From the NCBI GenBank assembly GCA_904502095.1, contig CAJGDG010000001.1:2242-66241 (forward strand): a stretch of DNA of 64,000 bases, given 5' to 3'. This document shows, piece by piece, positions 5,689 to 37,022 of this stretch. Positions within the stretch are counted from its first letter, which is position 1. Each line of letters starts with the position of its first letter. Below the pieces are notes generated by a model. That model did no database searches and was not told the DNA's origin. It saw only the letters and a list, made by a program, of their open reading frames with translations. The translations under genes were made by a program, and so were the position numbers. Origin of the DNA: an uncultured Alphaproteobacteria bacterium. Its GTDB lineage: Bacteria; Pseudomonadota; Alphaproteobacteria; Rs-D84.

Positions 5689-6912
5689 TTATTGTTTTTT
5701 GTTTATAGATTCGGCAAGACCAAATAAAGCACCCAATGAAGTAGCAAAGGAGCCTTCGTCGGTTGTATCGAGTGCCTCGGTCGCATCAGTTTCGAGTTTT
5801 GGGTCTTTTTTCGCGATTGCTTTTTTCAGTTCGTCAGAATTAAATTTTTTTATCACGTCGCCCGCATCACTTAAATCCAGTTTGCTTAAATCCAGATCGT
5901 CGACATTTTCCATGCCGGCTTCTTTTAATTTTTTCTTTATTTCGTTTGCGTTTTCTTCGCTTTTCTTGCTGGCTTTTTTAGCCTTTAAATCCTTGATTTT
6001 TTCGCCCAGTTCGCCGTTCAATGCCACATTGCCAATCAGCGATGCTGCGCCACCAACGCCGGCAGTAATTGCACCGGTTTTAACTTTCTTGGCGGCTTCT
6101 TCTTTTTGGGCATCCCACGCAGCGGCCGCGGTCGCGTCACCCTGTAATGCCGCCGCCAACGATGTATATGCGCCACCAGTTTTGCCAACATTTTTATCGT
6201 CGTACAGACCAGCTGTTGCGGCATCAATAATTTCTTCACTTTCGATGCCAGGTTGCATACCCAATGCGTTTTTGCGTGTTTTTAAACTGTTTGCCAGTTC
6301 GCGGTATTGCATAACCAGCGGTGTTAACGCATTTGCGCCAGGTAATTCAATTGCACTTTCGCCACCGGCAATGCGGCCTGAACCGTATTCGCATGTGAAT
6401 GTTGCAAGGTACGCCTTCATTGCAGTTTCGGCTTCTTCATCCGCCTTTTTTTCTGCCAATCCAGATGCCAATTGCATACCACCAATACCCATAGTCGCCA
6501 TACCAGTTGCGCCCAGTATTTTATTTTCCAACGATTGTTCGGTTTCTTTGGCTTCGTCTGCTTTGGCCTTTAAGTCCGCCAACTTTTTTGCCTTGGCTTC
6601 TTCATCGGCCGCGTCCGCGTCGGGGTCGGTGGCGGCTTCATCTCCTGGGGGTGTGTCGCCGGTTTCGTTGCCCGTGGTGGTGGAATTGCCTTTAAGCGCG
6701 GCTATGTTGTCGTCGTTTTGTGTTTTTAATTTTGTTTTTTCTTCCTCTGTTGCGGCACTTGCCCCGCCGATGATTTTTTGGGCTTCGGCTTCGTATGCGG
6801 CGATAATATCGGCCACCTTTGTTTTGCCCGCAAATGGGGAGTTTTCTTCAGCCGATGCCAGGGCAGGGATCATAAATAAAACTAATAAAGATGTCAGGCA
6901 CAGTTTTTTCAT
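5689..6912 (-). CDS. Secreted Ala/Lys/Glu/Asp-rich protein with glycine-zipper segments. Last gene of the minus-strand operon.
   Basis: Signal peptide MKKLCLTSLLVLFMIPALASA. Acidic low-complexity body. GxxxG-rich segments ILGATGMATMGIGGMQLASG and KTGAITAGVGGAASLIGNVALNG. Its start overlaps the upstream stop (ATGA at 6909-6912). Confidence 0.7.
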   Translation of the reverse strand: MKKLCLTSLLVLFMIPALASAEENSPFAGKTKVADIIAAYEAEAQKIIGGASAATEEEKTKLKTQNDDNIAALKGNSTTTGNETGDTPPGDEAATDPDADAADEEAKAKKLADLKAKADEAKETEQSLENKILGATGMATMGIGGMQLASGLAEKKADEEAETAMKAYLATFTCEYGSGRIAGGESAIELPGANALTPLVMQYRELANSLKTRKNALGMQPGIESEEIIDAATAGLYDDKNVGKTGGAYTSLAAALQGDATAAAAWDAQKEEAAKKVKTGAITAGVGGAASLIGNVALNGELGEKIKDLKAKKASKKSEENANEIKKKLKEAGMENVDDLDLSKLDLSDAGDVIKKFNSDELKKAIAKKDPKLETDATEALDTTDEGSFATSLGALFGLAESINKKQ

Positions 6913-8144
6913 GCTTTATCTCCCTCTCCACTTCCTTCTTGTGTCGTTTTTGTTTCCTGTTCTGTCAGTGCGGTTAATGCGGCCTGGGCCTGTTTTAATA
7001 AGTTTTTAAGCGCGTCGGATGCTGTTTTATATGCTTCGCTGGGCAGTTTTACGCATTTGCCGTCAACGGGGGTTGCTTCGTGTGTATTGGTGTCACATGT
7101 GATTGTGCATTTGTTTTCTTTGCCGTCCCATTCGGCCTTTGTGGCGCCTTCGATTTTTTCTTTTTTGCACGCCTCTTGTTCGGCGGCTATATCAGCCTTT
7201 GTTTTTTCAACACAGCCCGTGCCATCTTCCCACTTTTTTGTGCCACAATCGCAATCCGTATCGGGGGAAACGCTGTTTGTGACTTCGCCCTTTGTTTTTA
7301 AACACAATGATTCTTCGCAGGTTTTGTTATCCTTCTTTTTATAACCGCGTTTGCACTGAAGAATTATACATTCGCCGTCGGAGTTATAACGACCGACATC
7401 TATATTTTCAGCGACGCCATTCACGCCACCACGACATTCAGCTGGTTCGCATTTTGATTTGTCTTCGTTAGGTTTTTCGTATTTATTCGTACATTTTGTT
7501 ATTATGCATTTGTTTGATGTCGGGTCATATGCAAGCACTACATTTTTGGGGTCCAGTTTCATTTCTTTTGCATCGCATTTGACATTACACTGGTTTGATT
7601 CCCATTTGGCAGATGATGCGCCCCTGATTTTTTGTTGGTCGCAATTTTTTTCTGCCTGGGTTATACAGCCCTTGCCATCTACCCATACTGTGGCATTTTT
7701 ACATTCGCATGGTATGTCGCGCGTTGGGCGCCACAAGCCATTGGTTTTATCGCATAATTCCCGCTTTGCGGATTGGGCGTCTTTTTGTTGTTGTTTTTCG
7801 TTTGGTGTGCATGCACCTTCTTTCAGTTCATACCCGTTTTTGCAGGTTTTTACGACGCATTCACCATTTTGCATTTCGCCGGTTTTTGCGTATGGGTCCG
7901 TTGGTGTGCATTCACTGACGCATTTATTATTTTTTAACTTGTATTTTGGTTCGTCGCATGCGGTGATTTTGCATTCGCCTTTGTCCCATTTTGCGCCCTT
8001 GATCCCGTTTTTGCCGACTTGATTCTGGCATTTCATAGCAGGGGTTTCAACAAGCGTTTTCATAGGTTCCGCCTGTACAGCCATTGCGCCATAAAACGGT
8101 GCAATCATAAATAGGGCGGTAAAGATTTTTAATATGTTTTTCAA
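6909..8144 (-). CDS. Secreted tandem-repeat cysteine-rich protein (P3). TTG start codon.
   Basis: Signal peptide MKNILKIFTALFMIAPFYGAMAVQA. About 8 repeats of a ~45-aa Cys unit, for example KWDKGECKITACDEP.., KWESNQCNVKCDAKE.., GECIILQCKRGYKKKDNKTCEESLC. Codon 1 is TTG. Confidence 0.7.
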   Translation of the reverse strand: MKNILKIFTALFMIAPFYGAMAVQAEPMKTLVETPAMKCQNQVGKNGIKGAKWDKGECKITACDEPKYKLKNNKCVSECTPTDPYAKTGEMQNGECVVKTCKNGYELKEGACTPNEKQQQKDAQSAKRELCDKTNGLWRPTRDIPCECKNATVWVDGKGCITQAEKNCDQQKIRGASSAKWESNQCNVKCDAKEMKLDPKNVVLAYDPTSNKCIITKCTNKYEKPNEDKSKCEPAECRGGVNGVAENIDVGRYNSDGECIILQCKRGYKKKDNKTCEESLCLKTKGEVTNSVSPDTDCDCGTKKWEDGTGCVEKTKADIAAEQEACKKEKIEGATKAEWDGKENKCTITCDTNTHEATPVDGKCVKLPSEAYKTASDALKNLLKQAQAALTALTEQETKTTQEGSGEGDKA

Positions 8145-8155
8145 AATTTGTGCCT

Positions 8156-9622
8156 TTATTTATTAAATATGCCCCCCAAAATGTCTTTTAATTTGGATTG
8201 GTCAAAATTGTCTTGGTCGCCCCAACTGAAGTTTTCAAAGCCGTTGCTTTCTTTTATTTTTGATAACATATCGCGGCATTCTTCGTCGCTTGAGTCGTCA
8301 GTACAGTTATTATTTTTTAGCCACTTTTTCAGATCGTTTGTACAGCCGGTTTCTTTGTCATATTTTTGTGTCTTTGGACATTTGCACAGTTTTGTTGTTT
8401 TGTTCCATTTCCCACCTGTTTGACCGCATAATTCTTCTTTGTAATCGCGTTCAGCTTTGGCACGGTCAACCGCACGGTCGATGGCGCCCGATGTTACTGC
8501 GCCAGCAGCCATGCCCAATCCAGACCCCAGCATCGCAGAAGACGCAGATGTCTGGGAACGGGTTAAACGAAACGCATTTTCCATAAATGTCGTCACATCA
8601 ACGCCAAACCAGTTTTGATTGCAATCAAATGTTGAACCGGCATACGCCTTTTTAGATGCGTAAATCGAATCGTCTTCGCCTGCATGAAAATTTACAGTGA
8701 ACACACAACTGAATGTGCGTTCGTCAAATGCAGCGCCCAGCCGTTCGCATGTGCTGCGTAATTCATCGCGCAGCGCATATAAACGTTCCATGTCATGTTC
8801 GATTGTGTATTCTGCGGTGTTGCGGGCGGTGCCCATAACCTGCATCGCGCGGGCTGCCAGACCGCTGTCTTGTTCTGTGCATTCTTTGGCGATTTGTTCG
8901 CATTTTTTTATCGCAGCGTCGCCGTCGTTTTTGCCAACACATTTTTCAAATGTTTTTCCACAGGCACCAACAATACAATCGTTATAGCGATTGCCACAGT
9001 TCATAATGCCTTCGTATAATGATAGTTGTTGCATTACGTCACGGTCCGCCGCAATTTCCGGGGCAAATAATGCGTATTCATGACCGGTGCAGGTTGTGTT
9101 GCGACGACACGCGTCCATTTTGTCGCCCCAAATAGTGTCTGTGTCACCGGCACATTTTTGAAAACCGTCGCCGCATTTATTTATCATACATTTGCGTAAT
9201 TCCGCGTCGCATTTGTTTGCATCATGTCTGGTTGATTCGCCGGTGGTGGCAATGTCGTCATTGCTTTTGCCTGCGCGAAACGCCGCAATTCGTGCCAACA
9301 TATCACGGGTTTCGTCATCATCGTCATCGCCATCGCTGCCAAAGGCGTCGCTGAACATATTTGCCTTGTTCGTCAGCGGTTGAGTATAGGTTTCAGTTTC
9401 GGCTTTGGCGACTGTTTCTGTGGTTGTTTCGTTCGCGACAACAGCGGGCTCTGATTTTTTTGTTTTGGATGCGGTGCTGGCACGGGCGGCGTTTTTTGCC
9501 GCAGTTGGTTTGCCACGCGCCGCAACAGATGCAGCGTTTACATCGTTAATGCATATCAAAACAAAGATGCTGATAATGCATTTGAAAAGCTTTTGATAAA
9601 AATGTTTCGTTTTGCTCGTCAT
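8156..9622 (-). CDS. Cysteine-rich secreted protein (P4, 488 aa)
   Basis: Signal peptide ..IISIFVLICINDVNA. Basic Ala/Thr/Lys linker, then an acidic stretch DGDDDDDE. Two copies of the C-x6-C-x4-C-x6-C module (CDAELRKCMINKCGDGFQKC and CGNRYNDCIVGACGKTFEKC). Its start overlaps the upstream stop (ATGA at 9619-9622). Confidence 0.75.
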   Translation of the reverse strand: MTSKTKHFYQKLFKCIISIFVLICINDVNAASVAARGKPTAAKNAARASTASKTKKSEPAVVANETTTETVAKAETETYTQPLTNKANMFSDAFGSDGDDDDDETRDMLARIAAFRAGKSNDDIATTGESTRHDANKCDAELRKCMINKCGDGFQKCAGDTDTIWGDKMDACRRNTTCTGHEYALFAPEIAADRDVMQQLSLYEGIMNCGNRYNDCIVGACGKTFEKCVGKNDGDAAIKKCEQIAKECTEQDSGLAARAMQVMGTARNTAEYTIEHDMERLYALRDELRSTCERLGAAFDERTFSCVFTVNFHAGEDDSIYASKKAYAGSTFDCNQNWFGVDVTTFMENAFRLTRSQTSASSAMLGSGLGMAAGAVTSGAIDRAVDRAKAERDYKEELCGQTGGKWNKTTKLCKCPKTQKYDKETGCTNDLKKWLKNNNCTDDSSDEECRDMLSKIKESNGFENFSWGDQDNFDQSKLKDILGGIFNK

Positions 9623-10632
9623 TTCTTTTCAGATTGTTTTATCAATTCCTTTACTCTATTTTCTGTTTGAATATTAAATTCTTCCGTCTTTTGTTGTTTG
9701 CTAATTGTTTTGGCTGTCCATGAGTCAATTGTTGCGCACGCGGCTTTGTAAAATCCACACAGTGCCGCCGCCGCTGCGTTTTCTGAATTAAATATTTTGT
9801 CCGCATGTTCGGGGTATTCGTCTGTCGCGCGTTCACATTTAAATGTCATATTGTTGGCACAAACGGTTGCAACGCAACGATTGTATGCGCGGTTATCTTT
9901 GCACGAATTTTTTGCATCGTTCAACAGGGTTAAACGCTTGTTCTGGTATGCGGCGACAATGTGTTGAAGCGCGTCTTCGGCACTGTTAACAGCCGTGTCG
10001 CGCGCCGCCAGTAATGTTTCGCGAATTGCAGATATGTGTTCGTCACAGCCGGTGTTTTCAATGCTGCACGATGCAAAGAATTTATCAAAGTCTGAATTTT
10101 CTTTGCAGTTTCGATAATCGGCTGTGCACGCCTTGTCCAATAACATGCATTGAGTGATTAACGATTCGCAAGAGGATTTGGATTTTGATTCAGCCTTGGC
10201 CAATTCGTCCAGTTTTTCGGCACGGTCCATCGAAACCTTGGCAGCAGCACAAGATTGTTCAATCAGTGAATCGTATGATTCTTCGATGTCTTCGTCAGTA
10301 CAGCCGGCAACCTTTTTCATACATTCTGTGCGCGCCCAGACATAGCGTTGACCGGGTTCAGATGGCGCATTTTTCAATTCTTTTTCAGAAATTGTGTATT
10401 TAGAACTGGCCCCAACAGATACATTGCGCATACCTTTCTTGCCGGATGCGGGTGGGGTGCCAGCCTCGCTGGTGCCGCAATATTGACAGCGCGCCAATGG
10501 GTTCGACGAAAAGTTTATGGCACATACAGAATCCAAGCATTTGTTTAAATTTGCACGCGAACATTTAGCCACAGCGTGCGCCCCAGGACACGCTAAGAAA
10601 AAGCTGGCAAAAATTAATGCGTATTTGGTCAT
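9619..10632 (-). CDS. Cysteine-rich secreted protein (P5, 337 aa). First gene of the operon.
   Basis: Signal peptide MTKYALIFASFFLACPGAHA. N-terminal module KCSRANLNKCLDSVCAINFSSNPLARCQYC matches the family module. Paired Cys recur throughout. Confidence 0.75.
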   Translation of the reverse strand: MTKYALIFASFFLACPGAHAVAKCSRANLNKCLDSVCAINFSSNPLARCQYCGTSEAGTPPASGKKGMRNVSVGASSKYTISEKELKNAPSEPGQRYVWARTECMKKVAGCTDEDIEESYDSLIEQSCAAAKVSMDRAEKLDELAKAESKSKSSCESLITQCMLLDKACTADYRNCKENSDFDKFFASCSIENTGCDEHISAIRETLLAARDTAVNSAEDALQHIVAAYQNKRLTLLNDAKNSCKDNRAYNRCVATVCANNMTFKCERATDEYPEHADKIFNSENAAAAALCGFYKAACATIDSWTAKTISKQQKTEEFNIQTENRVKELIKQSEKK

Positions 10633-10761: not shown

Positions 10762-11274
10762 ATGTTCGTTAAAAAACCGGATTTAAGTAAAATTTCTTTG
10801 GCAGAAGCAAAGGATATTATAAAAAAATGGCACCCAAGATTAAATGCGACCAGTGCTGTTGCGTTGGCGTTTATGCTGTCTACGATTATTTTGGGCGTTA
10901 AAAGCTGTAAATATGAAAAAGAAAACGAAAGCTTGGAAGCAGATAAAAATAAATTGCATGAACAAGTAGTCAGTGCGTTGGATAGTTTACAGAAAACAGC
11001 TGGTGAAACAAAATCCCTTGCAATGGAAGCGTCACAGGTTTGTGGTTTGCGTGAAGAAAACCAAGAATTAAGAGATTCTATTCAAGGATTAAGAGGTTCT
11101 AATCAAGAATTAATAGATTCTATTGGTGTGTTGAATGCAAAATTGAAGAATTGCCAGGCGCGAAAGAAAACAGTTGTGGTTCAGTCTGCGCCAAAAAAGG
11201 CAGAAGCACCAAAAGATACATTTAATGTCGATGTTAAAATAAAAAGAACATATTATTGGACATACGGTCGTTAA
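10762..11274 (+). CDS. Coiled-coil protein with one TM helix, hypothetical
   Basis: AAGGA RBS. Hydrophobic segment AVALAFMLSTIILGV. Heptad-like body with internal tandem repeat NQELRDSIQGLRGSNQELIDSIGVL. Confidence 0.55.
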   Translation: MFVKKPDLSKISLAEAKDIIKKWHPRLNATSAVALAFMLSTIILGVKSCKYEKENESLEADKNKLHEQVVSALDSLQKTAGETKSLAMEASQVCGLREENQELRDSIQGLRGSNQELIDSIGVLNAKLKNCQARKKTVVVQSAPKKAEAPKDTFNVDVKIKRTYYWTYGR

Positions 11275-11295
11275 TAGTTTCTGTTGTCGGTAAAA

Positions 11296-11336
11296 AATCG
11301 GTCTGTTTGAAAAAAATAGACCGATTTTTATTTTTT
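11296..11336 (+). terminator. Intrinsic terminator
   Basis: Hairpin aatcggtct...agaccgatt followed by a T-run, directly after the stop at 11274. Confidence 0.6.
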
Positions 11337-11393
11337 TGGCTGGACAGGTAAGTCATTATTATGATAAGATTTTATTGTCATAAGAGAGTAGGA

Positions 11394-14300
11394 ATGAAAT
11401 TTATCAGAATTTTAATGTTTGCTTTGTTCTTGGTGCCGAGCGTATCGCGTGCTGCATCAAACGAATTTATGGTTGCGGCCCAGTTGTTGGCGGCGGCAAA
11501 AAACGCCGATATTCAGCAGGTGCAAAGTCTGGTAAATGCAGGGGCTGATGTTAATTTTGTGGATTCAACGGGATTGTCTATTGTTTGTACTGCGTTGATG
11601 AATAATGATGTGCGTGCTGCACAAATATTGCAAATGTATGGGGCTGATGCGTCAAAATGTGACAGTCAGATAAAAAGATACAACAATCGAACAAAGCCAA
11701 AGCCGAACGGCGGTCTGTTCAGCGGACTGTCGTCTGCCCAGACAATTGGTTTAGCGGCGGCGGGGGCCGCCGTTGTCGTAGGTGGGTTGTTTTTATTGAC
11801 TGATGTGTTTGACCCGGGAAATGATAATGACAGTTCAGCATCTGGGGGTAATCGCCCAGATAATAACCCAGACAGTGGTGGCGGCGTAAATGGAAACGCA
11901 GCTTTTTCGGTGGCGTACAGTCCGGCGTATCTGGGGGCGGATGGTAAAATGACCACGGATGATTCCGTTTATCAGGAAAATTTAGCGTCTTGGAATCCTG
12001 CTGCTGGTGGTTTGCGTGCGGCAGATTTTAACTATTTTAATCCAAATGAACAACCCGAAAATAATTATTATGTCGATGGCGTTGGTGTGCAGATGCAAAA
12101 TTATTTGCTGATGATGCATGGGTATTCTGCGTTTGCAAATGATTATTTTGGTCAAACTGTTTTCCGTGATAAATCAAATAATAATAATCCTGTGTTGGTC
12201 AGTAATAATGCTGGCGGTGGGGCACCTGTGGCGGTTGGTTTGGTGACTGCTAATGGTTTGAATTCGACTGGGTCGGCGGCGCGTGCAGGCGGTATTGAAT
12301 ATGCCAACAGTGCGGCGGCGGATGCAACAACATATTTGGTTGATAAATATTTGAACTATGCCAACCCTGATGCTGGTGGTGTTGAAATTGCGGGGTTTGA
12401 TTTTTCAGGTTCTGGTACTGCGATGAATCCGTTCGCGACCAGCTATGATAATGCGCTGGGTAAAATCGTCGCAGGTTGGGAGGCGGGCGGTCGTTCATAT
12501 GGTGATTTGATGGGTTTTGTTCCAAATGGTCGCTTGGCAATTTATAAGACAGGCGGTGGTGATGCATTTGTGGATGTTGCAAATCCAACCGATGGGGCGG
12601 TTGTTGCGACTTTGACAGATGTGGATGAAAATAGTGCGCTGGGGGTGGGCGATAAAATTGTGATGGGTGACGTCACATATAATATTGTCAGTGCGCGCGG
12701 TGATGCAACTGTGACAAATCCGACAATTAAAATTGGCAGTACTATATATAGACTGGCAGATGACAGTCAAATGCTGTTAGCGAAATGTGATGGGGATGCG
12801 TGTGATGATGTTTCTGATGTTGCAATTTATCAGGGAACTGACGGATATTATTATCTGAATACAACAGGTGGAAATGCGCCTGATGCAGTTTATGTTTTAA
12901 AAGACAATAATTTTTATGTGCAAAAAGAATTGCAAACAGACGGTGTTGCATACAAGAATTTTGAGGCATTAGATGCGGCGCGTTCATCTGGGGTTAATGT
13001 TTTAGCAAATGTTTCGATAATTGATGCATCGCGTGCAAATGATTATAAATCTGTTGCTGATATGCCTGCATATATTGCAACCAGTTCTTTGGCAGATACA
13101 GAAGATTATCAGAATTTAATTGATAAATACTATGGGGCAGGTCAGGGCGCATTTGCAAACAAGATGTTTAATGCGTATGGCGCGTCATCGCCGGTTTTGG
13201 TTATGCCTGCGGGGGAATTTGTTTTTGATAATAACGCTGCAAAAACAGCGACTTTTGAAAACTATGCCCCACTGTTATATGATACTAATTTAAATCAACG
13301 CTTTATGACTGTTGTGGCAGTTGGACATACCAAGGGTACCAGTGCGGCAACATCTATTTCAGGTTATGGTAATGGGGTTAATGATGCCTATGGCCCATTG
13401 TATTTGTCGATGTATGAAAAAGACGATGTTTCTTATATGTCGCGCACGTGTGGGGTTGCGGGTGTTGGTGGTGGCAATGTCGACCCGTGGTGTTTTGCTG
13501 CGGCGGGCCCAACAACAGAAATGGCGGCGGCATCGGCTGCGGGTGCGTTTGCTTCTTTGCAGGCGGCGTTTGATTATATGTCCAATGCCCAGATTTATCA
13601 GTTGATGGCTTTGACTGCTGATGGGTATTTGCTGGGAACGGCGTCTGACGGTACAGCCTTTACCAAAGATACTTTGGCAACATATTTAAAGCAGATGTAT
13701 GCATTGCCGCCTGAATATAATATAGGGACAATGTCGTCAGAACAATATTTGAACGCGTTTGCCCAGGTTTATGGTTATGGTTTGATTAATCTGGAACGTG
13801 CAATGAAGCCGGGGCGTTCTGTGTATTTCTATGATGGGGCGACAAATAAAATTGTGTCTGCAAATGGAAATGCGTATTGGCGTGCGGCGTCAAATACAGC
13901 GTTTCGTTCATCAGCTGCATTGAATATGCGTGGGGCAACAATCAGCGCACCTTTCTTTGATGTTGTGGAAAGTGTTAATGGCGAAATCTCTTTGCCGCGT
14001 GTTTGGGAAAATGAATTTGCGGTTGGGGCAACTGATTCACATGGATTGTATATGGGCGATGTGTTGGGTGACTTAGATACGCGTCGTGAATCTGCGCAAA
14101 AGACCAAGATTGGCGATATTGATTTTTCTTTGGCGTTGTCAGAACGCGCGTATGTTGATAATATGGGCGGATTGGACAGTTTGAATATTGGATACAAAAA
14201 TGGGAACTGGGGTTTTGGTGCGTCTTATCAGCGTTATTTAACAGACGGTGCGTCGCGTTTTGCGGGGCTGCACAATCCAATTATGGGGTTGGCATCAAAT

Positions 14301-15038
14301 GCGGTTGTGTCCGATGTTGAATATAATTATGGCAAATGGTCGTTTGGTGGACGTGCGTTTTCTGGTATGATTTCAGATGAAGGTCTGTTGGAAAATGATC
14401 CAACCGTATCAGCGCAGTATATGCCTGCAAAACTGGGCTTGGTCCAGGGTGGTGGCGCTGATATCAAATGGGTTGGCGACACTATTTCGTTTAAGTCGTC
14501 GATTGGTGCGGTCACAGAATCTGATACTTTGTTGGGGGCGTATACAGATGGTCTGTTGAATTTGGGTAATGGTAATACGACTTATGTTGATTTTGAATCT
14601 AAATATAATGTTTCTGATTCTGTTAATTTTACAGCGCGTGCGACATTTGCGCATACTGTGTCTGATGCGGTTGGCGGAATCGTGCTGGGGTTAAGCGATA
14701 TCGAGTCTAATTCATTTGCGTTTGGCGCAAATATCGGAAACTTTGAATTCAGTGTTTCCCAGCCTTTGGCAATAACAGATGGTGCGTTAAAATATTCGTA
14801 TGCAAAGTATGATGTTGATGCAACAGGGGCGGTAAATGTTGTTGATGCGCATATTGAAAATCTGTCATTAAAACCAGATGTGCGTGAAACAAGATTTATG
14901 GCAACATATCGTCATAATTTTGGCGAATTTACAGATGGGGCAGTTGGATTTATATATCGCGTTAATCCAAATCATACCGATGATTTCGGGAACGAGTCTG
15001 TATTTATGATGAAGTTAAGCCACAGATTGGGAATTTAG
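11394..15038 (+). CDS. Large secreted protein: N-terminal ankyrin repeats, degenerate subtilase-like central region, C-terminal beta-barrel (autotransporter-like)
   Basis: ORF trimmed to Met 11394 (MKFIRILMFALFLVPSVSRA signal peptide, GAGTAGGA RBS). Two ANK-like repeats (AAQLLAAAKNADIQQVQSLVNAGADVNFVDSTGLSIVCTALMNNDVRAAQILQMYGADAS). Region ..CFAAAGPTTEMAAASAAGAFASLQAAFDYMSNAQIYQLMALTADGY.. parallels the Ser-motif region of the S8 protease at 44942..46795 ([28 protein letters not shown]..), but carries Glu where the catalytic Ser should be. The C-terminal ~300 aa has an alternating beta-strand pattern rich in aromatic and Gly residues. Confidence 0.5.
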   Translation: MKFIRILMFALFLVPSVSRAASNEFMVAAQLLAAAKNADIQQVQSLVNAGADVNFVDSTGLSIVCTALMNNDVRAAQILQMYGADASKCDSQIKRYNNRTKPKPNGGLFSGLSSAQTIGLAAAGAAVVVGGLFLLTDVFDPGNDNDSSASGGNRPDNNPDSGGGVNGNAAFSVAYSPAYLGADGKMTTDDSVYQENLASWNPAAGGLRAADFNYFNPNEQPENNYYVDGVGVQMQNYLLMMHGYSAFANDYFGQTVFRDKSNNNNPVLVSNNAGGGAPVAVGLVTANGLNSTGSAARAGGIEYANSAAADATTYLVDKYLNYANPDAGGVEIAGFDFSGSGTAMNPFATSYDNALGKIVAGWEAGGRSYGDLMGFVPNGRLAIYKTGGGDAFVDVANPTDGAVVATLTDVDENSALGVGDKIVMGDVTYNIVSARGDATVTNPTIKIGSTIYRLADDSQMLLAKCDGDACDDVSDVAIYQGTDGYYYLNTTGGNAPDAVYVLKDNNFYVQKELQTDGVAYKNFEALDAARSSGVNVLANVSIIDASRANDYKSVADMPAYIATSSLADTEDYQNLIDKYYGAGQGAFANKMFNAYGASSPVLVMPAGEFVFDNNAAKTATFENYAPLLYDTNLNQRFMTVVAVGHTKGTSAATSISGYGNGVNDAYGPLYLSMYEKDDVSYMSRTCGVAGVGGGNVDPWCFAAAGPTTEMAAASAAGAFASLQAAFDYMSNAQIYQLMALTADGYLLGTASDGTAFTKDTLATYLKQMYALPPEYNIGTMSSEQYLNAFAQVYGYGLINLERAMKPGRSVYFYDGATNKIVSANGNAYWRAASNTAFRSSAALNMRGATISAPFFDVVESVNGEISLPRVWENEFAVGATDSHGLYMGDVLGDLDTRRESAQKTKIGDIDFSLALSERAYVDNMGGLDSLNIGYKNGNWGFGASYQRYLTDGASRFAGLHNPIMGLASNAVVSDVEYNYGKWSFGGRAFSGMISDEGLLENDPTVSAQYMPAKLGLVQGGGADIKWVGDTISFKSSIGAVTESDTLLGAYTDGLLNLGNGNTTYVDFESKYNVSDSVNFTARATFAHTVSDAVGGIVLGLSDIESNSFAFGANIGNFEFSVSQPLAITDGALKYSYAKYDVDATGAVNVVDAHIENLSLKPDVRETRFMATYRHNFGEFTDGAVGFIYRVNPNHTDDFGNESVFMMKLSHRLGI

Positions 15039-15094: not shown

Positions 15095-15526
15095 ATGATA
15101 AATGTATGTAATTTTATATCTGATTATATTACTGATTTTCCGTTAAGAAAAAACATCAAGGCGGAAAAAAGTAAAAATCCAAAATTGGATATGCTGGCGT
15201 TATATTATTTGTCGTGTGGGCGTTTGCATTTTTTGCGTGCCCGCGATAATCGTGTTTATTGGTATTGTATTGTAAATCCGACTTATTTAGATGCGGCAGA
15301 TTATATTTTGCGTGCGAACGGTATGGTGCCATCGCGTCATTTGTCTTATATGTTTTATCCTTGTGCCCAGGTGTTGCGTGTACCAGCCAAAGAAATCCAT
15401 AAAAGCAAAGAGAATATCGATTTTGTAAATCAAACAATGGTTTTGACAGAAGAAAACATAGATTATAATTTGGTTTACAATTATGTACAAGATGTGCAAA
15501 AGCAACTTAATCAAAATGTAAAATAA
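15095..15526 (+). CDS. Hypothetical protein
   Basis: 143-aa ORF between a promoter-like element and a terminator. No recognisable motif. Confidence 0.4.
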   Translation: MINVCNFISDYITDFPLRKNIKAEKSKNPKLDMLALYYLSCGRLHFLRARDNRVYWYCIVNPTYLDAADYILRANGMVPSRHLSYMFYPCAQVLRVPAKEIHKSKENIDFVNQTMVLTEENIDYNLVYNYVQDVQKQLNQNVK

Positions 15527-15555
15527 AAATCCCCAAAATGGGGATTTTTATTTTT
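15524..15555. terminator. Bidirectional intrinsic terminator, family aaaatcccc(N4-5)ggggatttt
   Basis: aaaaatccccaaaatggggatttttattttt between convergent genes. Confidence 0.7.
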
Positions 15556-16285
15556 GAAAGTATTGTGCTTTTTGCTTTTTGGAATTTTTGTACATTTCGT
15601 TCATTATTTCTTTTTGGCTCTCTTCTGTCTTGGAATCTTCTGAAAATTCTGTGCCGTTTAAGATGACAAGTCGTGCCGGCTTAAAGTCTTTGTTGCCTTC
15701 GCCGCCGCAGTCCACATGATATTTAGAAGCGTCATACGGTTTTCCCCAACATTTGCCGTTTTCAACCCCGATGTATCCTTTTTTTTCTAAGAAATCACAT
15801 GTGACTGGTTTGTCTGTAATTTCGCCGTTTTCTGTTTCATCGATTGGGTCTTCTAATATGCCGGTGCACCAAACCTTTACAGGTTTTCCACCAACCATAA
15901 CCTCGGAACCTGTTTTGTTATATTTGCGGCGTACACCAAAACAATCGTCGGTTTTTGATAAAATATTTGTATCAAAGTCGTCAGAGATAGCGTTATTGGT
16001 ATTGTGTTTGATATCGTTACGACTGACCAGTTGTGCTTCGTACGGTTGGGGGGGGTTAAATGCGTTTGGGCAAATGTATTTCATGCCGTAACAGTTTGAA
16101 TCACCGTCCCATTTGTCTGTGTTAAAACCATCGCCCATGTTGACATAGCATTTTGTTTCGTTGACACGACAAACTGTTGGTTGTTCCCACCAGGGGATAT
16201 CGAAAGCCGTGGCTGAATTATCGAAAGCCGTGGCTGAATTTATGCCAATCAAAGATAATACAGAAATTATAAATGCTTTTTTCAT
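15548..16285 (-). CDS. Small cysteine-rich secreted protein (245 aa)
   Basis: Signal peptide MKKAFIISVLSLIGINSATA. 14 Cys. In-frame tandem duplication NSATAFD x2 right after the signal peptide. Confidence 0.6.
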   Translation of the reverse strand: MKKAFIISVLSLIGINSATAFDNSATAFDIPWWEQPTVCRVNETKCYVNMGDGFNTDKWDGDSNCYGMKYICPNAFNPPQPYEAQLVSRNDIKHNTNNAISDDFDTNILSKTDDCFGVRRKYNKTGSEVMVGGKPVKVWCTGILEDPIDETENGEITDKPVTCDFLEKKGYIGVENGKCWGKPYDASKYHVDCGGEGNKDFKPARLVILNGTEFSEDSKTEESQKEIMNEMYKNSKKQKAQYFQK

Positions 16286-16294
16286 TGTCTTTTC

Positions 16295-18439
16295 CTATGG
16301 TGTTTGGGTGTCCGGCCCATCACAGAACCCCCATTTTTTTGATGCGTTTGTTTCGAAATAGAATTTGTCCCATCCTGTTTCTTCTTTTGGGGTGCTGTCC
16401 CATTCTCCGTCTAAGCGTTCGCATTCGCTGGCCAGCGCTTTCAGCATATCTGAACGAATTTCGTCCATAACAACATTAACATCCTGTAATATAATATCTG
16501 GGGTGACTTGGGAATCTGTGGCGCTGGGGCGCATACACATTTGGCGAGCATAACGCACCAATTTATGATGTAGACTGCCAACATATTTGCCGCCTTCCTT
16601 TGTCGGACATGATGGCTGCGATGAACCGTTTTCTGCAACGGTTGTTGTTCCATTGTTCCCTTGGTTCGTCACCGCTATGTTGCAGCCATGTTCTTGTGCA
16701 AAAGTTCTGTCGCCGGGGATATATGTGCGGCATGCGTATGGGTATGTGTGCAGGGTGTCGTTGCTGGGCACGGCGCACAATTTTTTTGCATAATCGCGCA
16801 ATACATTTTGACATTCTTGGGCGATTTGTTGACTGACTATGTCATACATAGCTGTGACCAATGCCGCCAGACCGTCAGGACCGCCCCCGTATAGATTGCT
16901 GCACGCATCCAATTTTTCTTGGCACATTTGTTCAGATAATTCCATGCGTAAACCCAACAACCGTGCTTCGTCGGTATCGCTAAAATCTTTTAATTGTTTG
17001 GTTTGTGTGTCATAGCATGTGTTTATCACCGTTAAACATTCGTTTTTTACCTGGCGGATGCGGTCTTGTTGGCCTTGGTGAATTTCGGTGATTGCCTGGC
17101 GCATGAATTCATCCCACACTTCGTCAGATATATCGCGGCAAGTGTCCAAACCACGGCTGGCAAAACTTTTCATATCATTTAATCTGGCGACGAACATAGT
17201 GTTCGCCTTGTTTTCCAGAATGTTGCCTGATAATGATGTTTGGTTGTTTAATTCAAAGAATTCAGCAGAATATATCGGTTCACCCGTTTCAATGTTTAAA
17301 TAACGGCCCGTCACATCCAGGCAATGAACATAATCTGTGCCGCACGCCATATTAGATGTGATGTCTTGGCGAACCTGGGCAATACAGTCATTGATGGATG
17401 TGGAATTGTGGGTGTTGTAATTTTCGTATCGTGCCTGGCCCATTTCGTTTTCTGTTATACGAATTTCGCTGTTTGCGGCAGTCAGTTTTTTATCCAAACC
17501 GCTGATTAACAAAGAACAATCGTTTTCAATATACATGCCATACGCAGAAACAACCATGGTCTTGGTGGCTGCGTTCGGGCAACTGGCCCCAACCAGTTCA
17601 ATACATTGTGCGTGAACCGCATTATAAAGTGGTTCGCCAGTAAGTGTTGCGATGTTTGCACCATCGGCAAAATCAGTGGTGTTCCATATCTGTTTTATAT
17701 CGCCCGCAATATCCAATGTCCCCTGGGACGACAATGATTTGCTTTTGGTGCCAGATAATATTTTGCTGATATTAGATAATTGGGCTGCGCTGTCAGATGT
17801 GTCTTTGGCGTTTTCCTGGGTCTGTTCGCCGATTGTTGCGGATAACATTGCGCCAACTTCGGCCCCAGATTTGTCGATTGCGTATATGTTTAAATCTTTA
17901 AAGTCTTGGATTTGTGTTGCTGTGTGTCCCAATGCGCGTTCGCGTGATTGGATTTCAGCTAAACGGGAAGAGCATATACATCTGCGATAAGTGTCGTTGG
18001 CTGTGCCGCAAAATTGATCCATACATGTAAAATATGCGTCACGACAAGATGCATAGCTGCTGCCAAAAATGGTGGTGGTGTCGATTTGTTCAGTGCCGCT
18101 GCGTGCAGTTATGTTTTTTATGCTGCGTGTATTTGGTGTAGCGTTGCGTGCAGTTGAAACAGTTTGTGCACCGCGCACAGTAGATACATTTTTCCCGCTG
18201 CGTGCAACAGAAACATTATTGCGTGCGGCGCGTGATGTGACAGTATTGCGTACGGATGTATTCTTTGTGTTTCGACTGGTGATGTTTTTTTTGCTGTCAT
18301 TTGTGCGTGTGTCTGAACGCACAGTCGATGATTGAGATGTGCGAACAGCCGCGTTTGTATCACGAACAGCAGCGTCGGCAAAGCCAACGCCAATAAACAG
18401 GGCTACAATAAACAGCAGTTTCTTTTTCATTCCTTTCAT
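16295..18439 (-). CDS. Large cysteine-rich secreted protein (P6). Start trimmed to MKGMKKK.
   Basis: Signal peptide MKKKLLFIVALFIGVGFADA. Long basic repeat linker (..VRDTNAAVRTSQSSTVRSDTRTNDSKKNITSRNTKNTSVRNTVTSRAARNNVSVARSGKNVSTVRGAQTVSTARNATP..). N-terminal module YASCRDAYFTCMDQFCGTANDTYRRCICSS. Paired Cys recur throughout. Confidence 0.8.
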   Translation of the reverse strand: MKGMKKKLLFIVALFIGVGFADAAVRDTNAAVRTSQSSTVRSDTRTNDSKKNITSRNTKNTSVRNTVTSRAARNNVSVARSGKNVSTVRGAQTVSTARNATPNTRSIKNITARSGTEQIDTTTIFGSSYASCRDAYFTCMDQFCGTANDTYRRCICSSRLAEIQSRERALGHTATQIQDFKDLNIYAIDKSGAEVGAMLSATIGEQTQENAKDTSDSAAQLSNISKILSGTKSKSLSSQGTLDIAGDIKQIWNTTDFADGANIATLTGEPLYNAVHAQCIELVGASCPNAATKTMVVSAYGMYIENDCSLLISGLDKKLTAANSEIRITENEMGQARYENYNTHNSTSINDCIAQVRQDITSNMACGTDYVHCLDVTGRYLNIETGEPIYSAEFFELNNQTSLSGNILENKANTMFVARLNDMKSFASRGLDTCRDISDEVWDEFMRQAITEIHQGQQDRIRQVKNECLTVINTCYDTQTKQLKDFSDTDEARLLGLRMELSEQMCQEKLDACSNLYGGGPDGLAALVTAMYDIVSQQIAQECQNVLRDYAKKLCAVPSNDTLHTYPYACRTYIPGDRTFAQEHGCNIAVTNQGNNGTTTVAENGSSQPSCPTKEGGKYVGSLHHKLVRYARQMCMRPSATDSQVTPDIILQDVNVVMDEIRSDMLKALASECERLDGEWDSTPKEETGWDKFYFETNASKKWGFCDGPDTQTP

Positions 18440-18519
18440 TAACTTAAAATATATTTTATCAAAATCTGGGCTGTTAAACAAGAAAAATGAAACAAAAAAA
18501 CCGCGATTGCGGTTATTTT

Positions 18520-18765
18520 TTATTGTGCGTTTTCAGTGCCGGTGCGCGTGCGTTCAACAAATGTAATGCGGCCCTTGTCCAAATCGTATGGGGTCATTTC
18601 AACACGAACGCGTTCGCCAACGTTGACCCAAATGCGTGCCTTGCGCATTTTTCCGCATACGGTTGCCAAAATTTCATGCCCGTTTTCCAATTTTACACGG
18701 AACATTGTGTTTGGCAGTTTGTCTTCGACTGTGCCACTGAAAACGATAACGTCATCTTTTGCCAT
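18520..18765 (-). CDS. infA: Translation initiation factor IF-1
   Basis: [69 protein letters not shown] is collinear with E. coli IF-1 (..[14 protein letters not shown]...SGKMRK...TPYDLSKGRI..). Confidence 0.9.
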
Positions 18766-18899
18766 ATTTTTTTTCCTTAATATTTTTCGTCAAATATAAT
18801 ATTGCGTATGCCGAAAAAAATCAAGTTGTTTTTATGTGCTTGCGTGCGGGGGAATTATTTGATAAAATAAAACATACTTATTATAGGGTGGAGAGTCCG

Positions 18900-21026
18900 A
18901 TGAGTTTAAGATTTTTTGCAATGTTATTGGTTTTATTCCCAACAGTTGCGCTGTCCGCAACTCGTGGTGATAATGCGCGGGTTGGGGCGATGCGTGCGTC
19001 CGGGGCGCGTGGGGGCGTTGCTGCAAATGCTGCAGCGGCAAATGCTGCGGCTGCGGCAAAAACACAATCGGCCGCGGCGGCAAAAACGGCGGCACCTGCG
19101 ACAGAAGATTCTGTGGAGGTAGAGGCAACGGCCAAGGCGCCAGCGTCAAGTGGCGATTGTCGTGAAGCGTATCGTGCGTGTATGGATGAATTTTGCTTGT
19201 TGGATGAATCCGAGGGGTATCGTTGTGCGTGCTCTTCTAATATAAATGCGTCTAAGTCTTTGATTAAGGAAGTTCAACAAATTCAAGAAGAAGCGGACAA
19301 ATTGTATACAGAAGGTGTCGAACGCGAACAGTTGGGCGCCAAGGCTGCGATTATATTTGGTGAAAGTGATGCCGCCAAGAAAAGTTCGCGTGCTTCTGGC
19401 TTAAGTTTTGCAGAATGGTTAAACAGTGGTTCTGGCGATGGATCCTTGGATGCGGATGAAGATATTGGTGATGGCTTGTATTCTATGGCCGCGGAATATT
19501 GTCAGGCTGAACTGGATGCGTGTGGTGACAAAGCCGAAATGGAAGAAATGTTGTATAGTCGTCAGGTTATCGCAGACTGTAAGGCGTTTACTGTGTATTT
19601 GGATGATCAAAAAAGAAATGCACTGGCGAACAAGCGTATGGCCGAATCGGCTGTGCGTCAGGCGCGTTTGGAAATGTTTGATACGACCAATAAATACAAT
19701 GCGGGTGAATGCTTGATTGCGTTTCGTGCGTGTGTTGCGGACAAGGGTGGTTGTGGCACGAATTTTGAAAACTGTTTAGATAAGGATTTGTTGACGCGTC
19801 GTTCCAAGGCGTGCGAAAATGTGTTGGATCAATGTATGGCGGTAAGAAAGTTGGTGCAACAAGATTGGGAAGAAGAGTCCGAATCGATTTTGGCAGAGGC
19901 TGAAAAATATGCAGATAAATATCGTCGTCAAACTTGTTTGGCGCAAATTCAGGTTTGTTTGGAAGATGGGTGTTCGACATCAACTAATTCTGCGTGCTTG
20001 ACTGATGTCAGGGTGGCCGCGGGTGTTTGTCCTATTATTGATGAATGTAATGAAATGATACCGGGGATAAAGTCTGTTATTAATGACAAGTTGGGGTATC
20101 TGCGTTTGCAGTTCTGTCAAAATGATGTGGATGCGTGTTTGCGCGACAAATGTGGTCAGAATTTTACTGCGCCGGAATGTCTTGGGAAAAATACATCTGA
20201 AATTGTTGCGATGTGTCCGCAAGATATGTTCCCGTCATGCAAAAATGAAACACAATATGATGTTATTGTTAGTGCTGCATTGTTGCAGATGGATTATCAG
20301 ATGATGCAGGGCTGTATGAATCATTTCAGTGAACAGTTGGGCAAAACTTGCGGTACAGATATGGCGTGCCTGCCGACTAGTGCGATTGTATCTGCTTTGT
20401 CCGATTTGCCAGAAGATGAAGCAGGGATGATAGAGTTGCGTGCAAATGTTATTGCAGAATCAAAGACGGCGGTGGATGAATTCTTTAAGCAGTTCGAAAA
20501 GGATAAAACTGTTGCTGCGTGCGCGGATGCAGAAAAACCAAGTGGTCGCAGCAGTTTGGGCGCAAATATCTTTAATACAGCAAAGATAATTGCTGAAATT
20601 GGCGCTGAAAATCGTGCGATTCGTGCATTGGAAGAAAAAATTACAGAAATATCACGCAAAAAGGATGTAAAAGAAGCGGAAGAACTGTGTTTGTCGACTT
20701 ACAAGGTCGAATCGCCAAGTCAGTCAAAGAAAAATTATAGTTATATAAAGAGTGTTTCTTTTGAGCCAAGTTTGCGTAATTGTCATGTTTGTCGTGTACA
20801 ACAGGTTTGTGAAACAGGTGGAGAATCTAAGGCTTCTTCGGCATTAAAGGCTGCGTCTGGCGGTTTGTCTGCTGGGGCGGCGGCAGGTACCATGGTTACA
20901 CCAGGTTGGGGCACTGCAATTGGTGGGGTTGTTGGTGCTGTTGGAGCTGGTGTAATGGGATATATGTCTGGCGGGGAAAAAGAATTCTGTCAGGAAATAT
21001 CAAGCTGTGAAGATATAAATATGTAA
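18900..21026 (+). CDS. Large cysteine-rich secreted protein (P7). Start trimmed to Met 18900.
   Basis: RBS GGTGGAGA. Signal peptide MSLRFFAMLLVLFPTVALSA. Ala-rich linker (AANAAAANAAAAAKTQSAAAAKTAAP). Module SGDCREAYRACMDEFCLLDESEGYRCACSS. Motif KYNAGECLIAFRACVADKGGCGTNFENC shared with P2 and P8. C-terminal glycine zipper AAAGTMVTPGWGTAIGGVVGAVGAGVMGYMSGG. Terminal Cys motif. Confidence 0.8.
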   Translation: MSLRFFAMLLVLFPTVALSATRGDNARVGAMRASGARGGVAANAAAANAAAAAKTQSAAAAKTAAPATEDSVEVEATAKAPASSGDCREAYRACMDEFCLLDESEGYRCACSSNINASKSLIKEVQQIQEEADKLYTEGVEREQLGAKAAIIFGESDAAKKSSRASGLSFAEWLNSGSGDGSLDADEDIGDGLYSMAAEYCQAELDACGDKAEMEEMLYSRQVIADCKAFTVYLDDQKRNALANKRMAESAVRQARLEMFDTTNKYNAGECLIAFRACVADKGGCGTNFENCLDKDLLTRRSKACENVLDQCMAVRKLVQQDWEEESESILAEAEKYADKYRRQTCLAQIQVCLEDGCSTSTNSACLTDVRVAAGVCPIIDECNEMIPGIKSVINDKLGYLRLQFCQNDVDACLRDKCGQNFTAPECLGKNTSEIVAMCPQDMFPSCKNETQYDVIVSAALLQMDYQMMQGCMNHFSEQLGKTCGTDMACLPTSAIVSALSDLPEDEAGMIELRANVIAESKTAVDEFFKQFEKDKTVAACADAEKPSGRSSLGANIFNTAKIIAEIGAENRAIRALEEKITEISRKKDVKEAEELCLSTYKVESPSQSKKNYSYIKSVSFEPSLRNCHVCRVQQVCETGGESKASSALKAASGGLSAGAAAGTMVTPGWGTAIGGVVGAVGAGVMGYMSGGEKEFCQEISSCEDINM

Positions 21027-23612: not shown

Positions 23613-24773
23613 TTAAGCGGCTTGTTTGATTCCTGATTTTATTTTTCTGATATATTTACGCAGTTCATCAATCGCAACCAGTGATCCGTCGCGTTTTTGT
23701 GCAGACCAATAATCCCAACCGTTAAAGCTGACGCTGCGTTGTATTTTTGCAGCCATTACATGGATTGATGCCTTGCCATATAATTGATGGGTCAGGTTGC
23801 CGTCTTGGGTTATCATAACGCGTTCGCCGCGTGGGCTGACCAATGTTTGACCAACATACAGCAGACCGGCTTCGATTAATTCTTTGAATGCAACGCGTAT
23901 TTCATCGCGTTTTGGTTTTGTCACTTCGATATCTGTTAAATCAATTGGTTTAACATTTGCAATCCTTTCGCGTGCAGCTGCGACGTAAGTTTCGTCGCGT
24001 TCAAAGCCAATAAATTGACGCCCCAGTTCAATTGCGGCCGCGGCTGTTGTGCCAGAGCCCATGAATGGGTCTAAAATAATATCGCCTGGTTTTGTTGATG
24101 CCAATATCACACGATGCAATAAATCCAATGGTTTTTGTGTGTTGTGCAGGCTTTTGCCGTCGCTGTCTTTGACGCGTTCTTCGCCCAGACAAATATTCAA
24201 CCCCCAATCCGAGCGCATTTGTTTTCCGCCATTTAATTTTTTCATTGTTTCATAATTAAATGTGTATTTGCCTGTTTTAGTTGGCGTTGCCCAAATAAGT
24301 GTTTCGTGTGCGTTTGTAAAGCGTGTGCCGCGAAAGTTTGGCATAGGATTTGTTTTTACCCATACAATATCATTTAAAATCCAAAAGCCCATATCTTGTA
24401 AAATCGCACCAACGCGGAAAATGTTATGATAGCTGCCGATTGTCCACATTGCGCCATTTGGTTTTAAAATGCGTTTGCATTCAGCCAACCATTGTTTTGT
24501 AAATTCATCGTATTCAGCAGATGATTCAAACGAATCCCATGAATCGCGTACTGCACGTGCAGCAGTTTGATCTTCGGGGCGGTACAATGTTTTTGCCCCC
24601 AGTTGTAAATTATACGGCGGGTCTGCAAAAACAGCGTCGATGGATGCGTCTGGAATTTGGCGCATCATTTCGATACAGTCTCCTTGTAAAATTTGATTCA
24701 GGTATTTTTTCATCTCTCTCTGCGTTCCCGTTGTATACATTTTATCATATTTTGGAGTGTAATTTTTTTGCAT
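23613..24773 (-). CDS. ccrM: N6-adenine DNA methyltransferase, CcrM-like (beta-class, DPPY). Likely true start near 24713 (MKKYLNQILQGDCIE).
   Basis: ILQGDCIEMMRQIPDASIDAVFADPPYNLQLGA... is the canonical CcrM N-terminus. A ~90-aa C-terminal extension is present, as in CcrM. Confidence 0.85.
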   Translation of the reverse strand: MQKNYTPKYDKMYTTGTQREMKKYLNQILQGDCIEMMRQIPDASIDAVFADPPYNLQLGAKTLYRPEDQTAARAVRDSWDSFESSAEYDEFTKQWLAECKRILKPNGAMWTIGSYHNIFRVGAILQDMGFWILNDIVWVKTNPMPNFRGTRFTNAHETLIWATPTKTGKYTFNYETMKKLNGGKQMRSDWGLNICLGEERVKDSDGKSLHNTQKPLDLLHRVILASTKPGDIILDPFMGSGTTAAAAIELGRQFIGFERDETYVAAARERIANVKPIDLTDIEVTKPKRDEIRVAFKELIEAGLLYVGQTLVSPRGERVMITQDGNLTHQLYGKASIHVMAAKIQRSVSFNGWDYWSAQKRDGSLVAIDELRKYIRKIKSGIKQAA

Positions 24774-36875: not shown

Positions 36876-37022
36876 GTTTATTGCTCCTTAAATTTCACAT
36901 TTAAATATAGTACAATAAATCGGTTTGTCAAGTGTGTTTTTGTGATATTTTGTGTTGATAATTTTTTATTATGTGGTACAAATTCCTATAAGGAAGGATT
37001 TTTTAAAAAAGGAGATGTTTTT

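Follow-up and report, generated by a model that had tools for sequence, protein, structure and literature searches.

What is the role of a secreted bacterial protein in which ankyrin repeats precede a subtilase-like domain with a glutamate in the place of the catalytic serine, and which ends in a beta-barrel? This question is raised by a gene in a 64,000-nucleotide stretch of contig CAJGDG010000001.1 (the window), which originates from Candidatus Enterousia of the uncultured gut alphaproteobacterial order Rs-D84. From our sequence comparisons and structure models, we consider it rather probable that the gene product is a non-catalytic subtilase scaffold on an outer-membrane barrel, and that its conserved pair of ankyrin repeats (ANK) and a hydrophobic segment bind a partner.

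11361 to 15038, forward strand: open reading frame of the ANK/pseudo-S8 gene (the target), S8 being the peptidase family of the subtilases.

The probable start is ATG 11394, which yields 1214 residues and a stop codon. The sequence AGGA lies 3 nt 5' of this ATG, and a start of the form MK(F/Y)IR is common to most homologs (MKFIRIL... in the target protein).

Structure prediction and profile alignment both point to a subtilase origin of the central region. The features concerned are the following.

11916 to 13823, forward strand: subtilase-fold (S8-derived) pseudoprotease domain, residues 175-810 (about 640 residues), from AlphaFold, Foldseek and hhalign.
12531 to 12908, forward strand: beta-rich insertion in the subtilase fold, residues 380-505 (about 125 residues), with approximate boundaries from DSSP of the models and alignment.
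13518 to 13520, forward strand: codon of Glu709, in the place of the catalytic Ser (TTE for GTS).
44942 to 46795, reverse strand: paralogous S8-barrel protein, used as comparator (Pfam S8 E 6e-27, 44945 to 46795).

The AlphaFold model of residues 160-815 has a mean predicted local distance difference test score (pLDDT) of 86.9 and a predicted template modelling score of 0.91. In a Foldseek comparison with the PDB, subtilases made up the whole of the top 50. The autotransporter Ssp from Serratia (8e7f, E 9.6e-5) and fusolisin matched best, and mycosin MycP1 and subtilisins were among the others. With normalisation to subtilisin BPN', the template modelling score rises as high as 0.64 across some 570 aligned columns; the subtilase fold is hence there in both its halves, distributed over a longer chain. 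At the sequence level, a profile of the passenger aligned to the family of the S8 paralog with a probability of 96.6% (hhalign, E 6.7e-10, 139 columns), in agreement with a preliminary description of this DNA in which a central region of the target had been called collinear with the Ser-motif region of the paralog. The alignment to 18 distant proteins consisting of ANK, S8 with an intact triad and a barrel (the ANK-S8-barrel proteins) was stronger still (99.9%, E 1.3e-36) and ran over 449 columns from the C-terminal half of S8 to the last barrel strand. Significant S8 sequence homology covers the C-terminal half of the domain. There, in the alignment to the S8 paralog family, PILVMPAGE (600-608) corresponds to the oxyanion strand ILVWAAGN, FMTVVAVGH to the strand after it, WCFAAAG to CITAPG, MAAASAAGA (710-718) to FAAPIVSAA, the residues following the Ser of GTS, and YGYGLINLERA to an S8 element of 11 residues.

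Less sensitive comparisons recovered little of this relationship. Pfam PF00082 (S8) failed on all family members scanned (the target and 24 homologs; best E 0.75), and Pfam and NCBIfam scans of the whole target protein returned a weak ANK signal and neither S8 nor barrel; PADLOC likewise gave a weak ANK match only. Searches of PDB sequences with phmmer (residues 521-830) gave no match, those with the passenger profile no relevant match, and those with the whole-protein profile were swamped by designed ankyrin repeat proteins (DARPins). BLASTP against the S8 paralog matched YGYGLINLERA alone (E 0.002). The whole-protein profile aligned over 12 columns (E 0.08) to subtilisin BPN' and to the single S8 paralog sequence at the barrel end only; the S8 relation emerged with the passenger-only profile. 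The N-terminal half of the domain is remodelled. The beta-rich insertion holds the pair Cys465/Cys470 and two similar hairpin motifs, GDTITLNG.TY and NPTITINGTTY; a CBM_5_12 match in it was weak in 4 of the 24 homologs (best E 0.023) and not significant. The preliminary description had placed the S8 region at residues 550-800: its derivation from a subtilase stands, and its extent is to be widened to about 175-810, including the remodelled half and the insertion.

The catalytic residues were compared in the same alignments. Glu709 lies in the Ser-motif region AAGPTTEMAAASAAGA (nt 13500-13547), directly precedes MAAASAAGA and occupies the place of the Ser of GTS, so that the target reads TTE(M)AAAS in place of the motif G-T-S-x-A-x-P. 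Among 80 Enterousia genomes, this position holds Glu in 79 and Gln in one, which upholds the earlier claim of a Glu for the catalytic Ser. The oxyanion Asn position (Glu608 in the target) is occupied by Glu in 59, Ala in 11, Asp in 6, Gly in 3 and Ser in 1 of these genomes, and the 13-residue hairpin that normally stands before GTS is deleted. With Ser and oxyanion Asn replaced and the hairpin lost, the inactivated protease scaffold of the preliminary description is corroborated. Over the N-terminal half, the hhalign alignments are weak and not significant (E 0.006-0.04); they place Thr285 or Asn271 at the Asp position and Gly, Ser or Thr at the His position. Two other motif assignments were tried and rejected: MHGYSAF as the catalytic His motif, as its invariant His242 aligns instead, in these weak alignments, to the helix before the Asp strand (AYxRGYTG motif), and ILVMPAGE as the equivalent of VINMSLG, as hhalign puts it on the AAGN strand.

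Alone or with the help of Glu608, Glu709 might form a new carboxylate active site on the subtilase scaffold, in which case the protein would still be an enzyme. This would agree with the near invariance of Glu709 in the 80 Enterousia genomes, with an invariant polar cluster nearby in the sequence and with the location of Glu608 at the oxyanion-hole position. However, the divergent members of the wider family, obtained from a search of 1.84 billion cluster representatives, have A, T, Q, G, L, P, D or S besides E at the Ser position. The pre-Ser hairpin is missing in all of them, and the true S8 relatives in the alignment keep both hairpin and GTS. Moreover, Glu608 is replaced by Ala, Gly or Ser in 15 of the 80 genomes, and the weak alignments of the N-terminal half identified no His or Asp partner. 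The variability of the Ser position across the wider family argues for a pseudoenzyme and against a new Glu-based mechanism. A new enzyme is very improbable in our view, and we conclude from the residue patterns that the target is a pseudoprotease and not a Glu-based enzyme.

In front of this domain, the protein carries the modules that we consider most relevant to its role.

11394 to 11456, forward strand: signal peptide, residues 1-21 (MKFIRILMFALFLVPSVSRAA), predicted from sequence and alignment by Sec signal-peptide rules.
11463 to 11678, forward strand: two ankyrin repeats, residues 24-95, with the conserved pair Cys65/Cys89.
11679 to 11810, forward strand: basic stretch KRYNNRTKPKP (96-105), then the Gly/Ala-rich hydrophobic segment GGLFSGLSSAQTIGLAAAGAAVVVGGLFLLTDVF (106-139).
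11811 to 11915, forward strand: low-complexity linker rich in Gly, Asn, Asp and Ser, residues 140-174, with pLDDT below 50.

The A-x-A-type (small-x-small) cleavage site of the signal peptide is conserved across the aligned homologs, in support of the secretion proposed earlier. The two ankyrin-like repeats of the preliminary description were recovered by several comparisons. In the target, the Pfam Ank_2/Ank_4 match (residues 31-87) remains below threshold (E 0.004; 18 bits versus cut-offs of 27.3 and 22.7); all 24 aligned homologs match these families (best E 1.3e-5), and for the target, similarity was also found to DARPins of the PDB (E 5e-13) and, by hhalign, to the ANK part of the distant ANK-S8-barrel proteins (E 4e-11). 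The AlphaFold model shows two helix pairs here, with low confidence. Mean identity over the 80 genomes amounts to 83% for ANK and 84% for the Gly/Ala segment (residues 106-139); in the pseudo-S8 domain and in the barrel, it is about 60%. No other modules are as well conserved as these two, which are therefore likely to be the functional part of the protein.

The Gly/Ala segment, which the preliminary description had missed, lies between ANK and the passenger. Its Kyte-Doolittle mean of 2.2 over 19 residues is at the level of a transmembrane helix, and it is flanked by basic residues on the N-terminal and acidic residues on the C-terminal side. An inner-membrane anchor at residues 106-139 was considered and judged less probable: with a stop-transfer helix behind a cleaved signal peptide, the barrel would be stranded in the cytoplasm, and a sum on the biological hydrophobicity scale of Hessa is near zero. 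This simple sum was about 0 kcal/mol in the target family, between +0.4 and +2.3 in the family of the S8 paralog and mostly +2.3 to +3.5 in the distant ANK-S8-barrel proteins, with P0357 as an outlier at +0.3. The value near zero marks the segment as marginal, so that its translocation is plausible. The Gly/Ala element is also present in the S8 paralog and the distant ANK-S8-barrel proteins. Membrane insertion into a partner cell, a plug of the barrel and an anchor in a membrane leaflet are candidate roles for it. The six Cys residues of the target form three conserved pairs, 65/89 inside ANK, 465/470 and 686/700, which would fit an oxidising, extracytoplasmic location of every part, including ANK.

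The C-terminal part of the protein determines how these modules may be displayed.

13824 to 14099, forward strand: linker between pseudo-S8 and barrel, residues 811-902, with a conserved element and two low-confidence strands.
13851 to 13898, within this linker: the conserved element IVSANGNAYWRAASNT, residues 820-835, strongly conserved, with pLDDT below 50.
14100 to 15035, forward strand: C-terminal beta-barrel, residues about 903-1214, ending in HRLGI, from AlphaFold and Foldseek.
36942 to 40862, forward strand: classical autotransporter of 1306 residues with an Autotransporter beta-domain and Chlamydia PMP (Chlam_PMP) repeats.

The AlphaFold model of the mature protein has a mean pLDDT of 71.6, with barrel blocks mostly at 60-89. 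According to its DSSP string, about 16 long strands follow residue 903 or so, and there is no long pore helix; the sole helix of the preceding linker has 5 residues in a low-confidence model. The segment IVSANGNAYWRAASNT is a candidate pore-traversing or plug element. In the PDB, Foldseek matched the barrel to OmpG, porins of the OmpU/OmpF type, FadL and BcsC, which have 14-16 strands (E 2e-5 to 1e-3).

The preliminary description had called the barrel autotransporter-like. In its strict form, this would make the target a classical type Va autotransporter adhesin, in which a 12-strand barrel with a pore helix exports the passenger and ANK binds a host protein. The order of signal peptide, passenger and C-terminal barrel is indeed present, the S8 fold has its closest counterparts in Ssp and fusolisin, both of them autotransporter subtilases, and the S8 paralog has partial NCBIfam matches to the EprS and fusolisin autotransporter peptidases. 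The barrel itself speaks against it. In Pfam scans, PF03797 was absent from the target, the 24 homologs and the 18 distant relatives, whereas it detected the true autotransporter at 36942-40862, our positive control, at E 2e-26. Aligned to the barrel of that autotransporter with hhalign, the target barrel profile and a broad barrel-family profile reached an E of 0.32-0.35, and among PDB sequences neither profile had a relevant match or found a solved autotransporter barrel. About 16 strands without a long pore helix, and OmpG, porins, FadL and BcsC as the best folds, are likewise at odds with a type Va barrel. The target barrel is homologous to the barrels of S8-barrel proteins, with an E of 3.7e-5 to the barrel end of the paralog. 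The porin family OprB (PF04966) was not matched by the target or the 24 homologs; the distant homologous barrels of P0332 (39 bits), P0321 (33 bits) and P0334 (25 bits) pass its Pfam cut-off of 22.9, and a match was found in just 2 of the 18 ANK-S8-barrel relatives. From the models and these searches, we conclude that the barrel is porin-like and not a classical 12-strand autotransporter domain. The outer-membrane barrel and the gross layout of the preliminary description can be kept, its barrel type cannot, and a type Va adhesin is quite unlikely.

A porin-like barrel lends more weight to a second alternative, in which the barrel would be no more than an outer-membrane anchor, comparable to those of SLH-OprB porins, BcsC and PgaA. 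The N-terminal part would then remain in the periplasm, where pseudo-subtilase, ANK and the hydrophobic segment would organise or tether the cysteine-rich envelope proteins or contact the inner membrane. Known N-terminal extensions of porin- and BcsC-type barrels are periplasmic. The neighbouring genes encode cysteine-rich secreted proteins that also have Gly/Ala-rich stretches, and a segment of marginal hydrophobicity might enter one leaflet of a membrane. Nevertheless, in structure the S8 domain comes nearest to autotransporter passengers that are displayed at the surface, Pfam and NCBIfam detected no peptidoglycan- or inner-membrane-binding domain, and the periplasmic arrangement is derived by analogy only. 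We regard it as the foremost of the alternatives, with a modest chance of being correct. Exposure of the target at the cell surface is favoured instead, by analogy, because its S8 domain is closest to the autotransporter subtilases.

Hundreds of 'S8 family peptidases' from Alpha-, Beta- and Gammaproteobacteria have this C-terminal domain in common with the target. More speculatively, the barrel could represent an unrecognised self-exporting class with about 16 strands, unrelated in sequence to PF03797 and to any solved structure. The Enterousia passenger would then have turned from a protease into a rigid, non-catalytic stalk that presents a disulfide-locked ANK pair and a glycine-zipper-like, membrane-active segment to a host or partner cell. 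This seems unlikely to us; if true, an obligately dependent bacterium with less than 1 Mb of DNA would have in this protein its key means of attachment.

For the partner-binding scaffold that we prefer, the following sequence of steps is envisaged. The protein would be exported by the Sec system, its Gly/Ala segment would be translocated and not retained in the inner membrane, and the barrel would insert into the outer membrane. The subtilase-fold body may then serve as a rigid scaffold or binding platform that holds the ANK pair and the hydrophobic segment. Possible partners are proteins from the host or from another cell, and also the cysteine-rich envelope proteins encoded nearby; the host-protein-binding adhesin of the preliminary description is in this respect a reasonable guess. 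An extracytoplasmic location is indicated by the signal peptide, the three conserved Cys pairs and the match of the barrel to outer-membrane proteins. Selection on the target is indicated by its full-length presence in the genomes of 278 species, each below 1 Mb, by the 83-84% identity of ANK and the Gly/Ala segment, and by the retention of its neighbours. We conclude from these patterns that it is a subtilase pseudoprotease under purifying selection, in principle comparable to CspC.

Four observations weigh against the partner-binding scaffold. The ANK region has a pLDDT of just 28-44 in the AlphaFold model. The Gly/Ala segment scores as a transmembrane helix (Kyte-Doolittle 2.2, positive N-flank), and a stop-transfer function would break the proposed topology. 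For the equivalents of Asp32 and His64, no alignment of the N-terminal half is significant (E 0.006-0.04). Finally, Glu709 and the polar residues E622, N623, R684, D697, D743 and R802 are invariant in the Enterousia clade; such a set around Glu709 would also fit a conserved ligand site or new chemistry.

The distribution of the family bears on its importance and origin. Full-length relatives were found in 278 species genomes in a scan with one genome per species, nearly all of them titled Candidatus Enterousia or 'Alphaproteobacteria bacterium' and from animal or human gut; with so many full-length orthologs, the architecture is far beyond chance. Candidatus Enterousia and the order Rs-D84 are widespread in the animal and human gut, and their genomes, smaller than 1 Mb, are without a tricarboxylic acid cycle, respiration and standard nutrient transporters (PMC12306168). 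These bacteria presumably depend on other cells. The 1214-residue target takes up about 0.4% of a genome of less than 1 Mb, and 278 species have retained it in full length. As an inactive subtilase anchored in the outer membrane, with an ankyrin tip of high conservation, it would be a concrete candidate for partner binding. Few subtilase pseudoproteases are known, and the target would be a further one, from a Gram-negative envelope; it also points to a family of S8-fused barrels that is unclassified in current domain libraries. In the NCBI annotation, the named family members are labelled 'ankyrin repeat domain-containing protein' only.

The family is narrow, with 110 representative clusters at E <= 1e-3, of which 59 at E < 1e-30, and by these searches it is confined to Enterousia and close relatives. 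The weakest matches, which are confined to the barrel, are to genuine S8 peptidases (by Pfam, E 1e-23 to 1e-63); among them, P0325 and P0332 carry ANK repeats in front of S8. A search with P0332 retrieved at least 18 clusters of ANK and S8 proteins of 890-1050 residues, and many 'S8 family peptidases' of about 700-950 residues with the same C-terminal domain (Noviherbaspirillum, Aromatoleum, Thioglobus and others). In the 18 ANK-S8-barrel proteins, a signal peptide, ANK, a Gly/Ala-rich segment, a poly-Gly/Ser linker, S8 with intact D/H/N/S and the barrel follow each other in this order. The alignment of the target to these proteins, together with the like N-terminal layout of the S8 paralog, implies that the target is a degenerate, enlarged derivative of an existing architecture. 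Judging by this homology, the Enterousia protein descends from ANK-subtilase-barrel proteases and is not a new fusion. The architecture had been described as unusual, and for the inactivated version, which alone is special to the Enterousia lineage, this holds; the layout of ANK, S8 and barrel itself is not unique, as it occurs in at least 18 distant clusters with intact triads. The proteins with ANK, intact S8 and a barrel other than PF03797 (P0332, P0325, P0350-P0364 and P0441) form an uncharacterised family of uncultured Proteobacteria. Their barrels have no sequence relative in the PDB, and our literature searches found no paper on ANK-subtilase-barrel proteins.

Compared with known systems, the target resembles the subtilase autotransporters, namely Ssp of Serratia marcescens (8e7f), fusolisin of Fusobacterium nucleatum (8axg), EprS, NalP and SphB1, in its signal peptide, S8-fold passenger and C-terminal outer-membrane barrel, and Ssp and fusolisin are the best structural matches of its passenger. 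In these autotransporters, the Asp/His/Ser triad is intact and the barrel is of the 12-strand PF03797 type with a pore helix, whereas the target has lost the triad, has a larger barrel unrelated in sequence and carries an additional ANK pair and Gly/Ala segment at its N-terminus. The ANK-S8-barrel proteins (such as P0332 with 914 and P0325 with 1052 residues), annotated only as 'S8 family serine peptidase', share its module order and a homologous barrel. They differ in keeping D, H, N, S and the pre-Ser hairpin (Pfam S8 E 1e-56 to 1e-63), in having 3-6 ANK repeats and a less hydrophobic Gly/Ala segment, and in being without the beta insertion of about 125 residues. Porins of the OprB type and with 14-16 strands (OmpG, FadL, BcsC) are the best fold matches of the C-terminal domain, but they are without an N-terminal extension of about 880 residues of this kind, and the target itself is without an OprB match. 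CspC and CspA of Clostridioides difficile also combine a subtilase fold with a mutated triad and are retained for a non-proteolytic role in sensing or binding (PMC7200643). They are Gram-positive spore proteins without ANK or membrane barrel and unrelated in sequence beyond the S8 fold, so that the comparison is an analogy of principle only.

The S8 paralog of the window shares the lineage-specific layout of the target, with a signal peptide, a short Cys-pair segment, a Gly/Ala segment, a linker, S8 and a C-terminal beta domain. The place of ANK is taken by a basic segment of 24 residues, which contains a conserved Cys pair, and the linker is rich in Ser and Thr. The paralog is an active protease by its residues D148, H155, N253 and S324, which are invariant. 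It differs from the target in being without ANK, in its half size and in its shorter C-terminal domain with the typical end ...FQF. The proposed Asp148 and His155 are just 7 residues apart, unusually close for S8.

The surroundings of the target gene contain the following features.

10762 to 11274, forward strand: gene lying between the target and the cysteine-rich genes, whose 170-residue product is predicted to have a single membrane segment and has a tail that resembles a coiled coil.
11293 to 11329, upstream of the target gene: terminator-like hairpin of the preceding gene.
11341 to 11370, forward strand: promoter-like site TGGACA-18-TAAGAT with TG, 3' of this hairpin; a consensus match only and as such weak evidence.
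15095 to 15526, forward strand: small gene of 143 residues without family match, directly downstream of the target gene.
15520 to 15554, 3' of the small gene: bidirectional terminator-like hairpin.

The target gene looks monocistronic, or it shares a transcript only with the small conserved gene downstream, which is kept in at least 35 of the 80 loci on the same strand at about 30% identity. On the upstream side, two divergently oriented genes (8156-9622 and 9619-10632), which code for cysteine-rich secreted proteins, are neighbours of the target gene in at least 70 of the 80 loci, and the product of 8156-9622 carries a Gly/Ala-rich stretch too. The protein encoded at 10762-11274 gave no tblastn match in the 80 related loci, where a gap of similar size is kept, and would be either fast-evolving or lineage-specific. 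A Pfam scan of the products of 9619-10632, 15548-16285 and 16295-18481 gave no match (8156-9622 was outside the scan).

The secreted cysteine-rich cluster of the window comprises 1371-4292, 6909-8144, 8156-9622, 9619-10632, 16295-18481, 18759-21026 and 21049-23529. Several of its proteins have the N-terminal motif C..(A)Y..CMD.FC in common, and several carry Gly/Ala-rich hydrophobic stretches near the C-terminus. At 23613-24773 on the reverse strand, the window further encodes a DNA methyltransferase (N6_N4_Mtase and RAMA domains, DPPY motif), which we take to resemble a CcrM-type adenine methylase.

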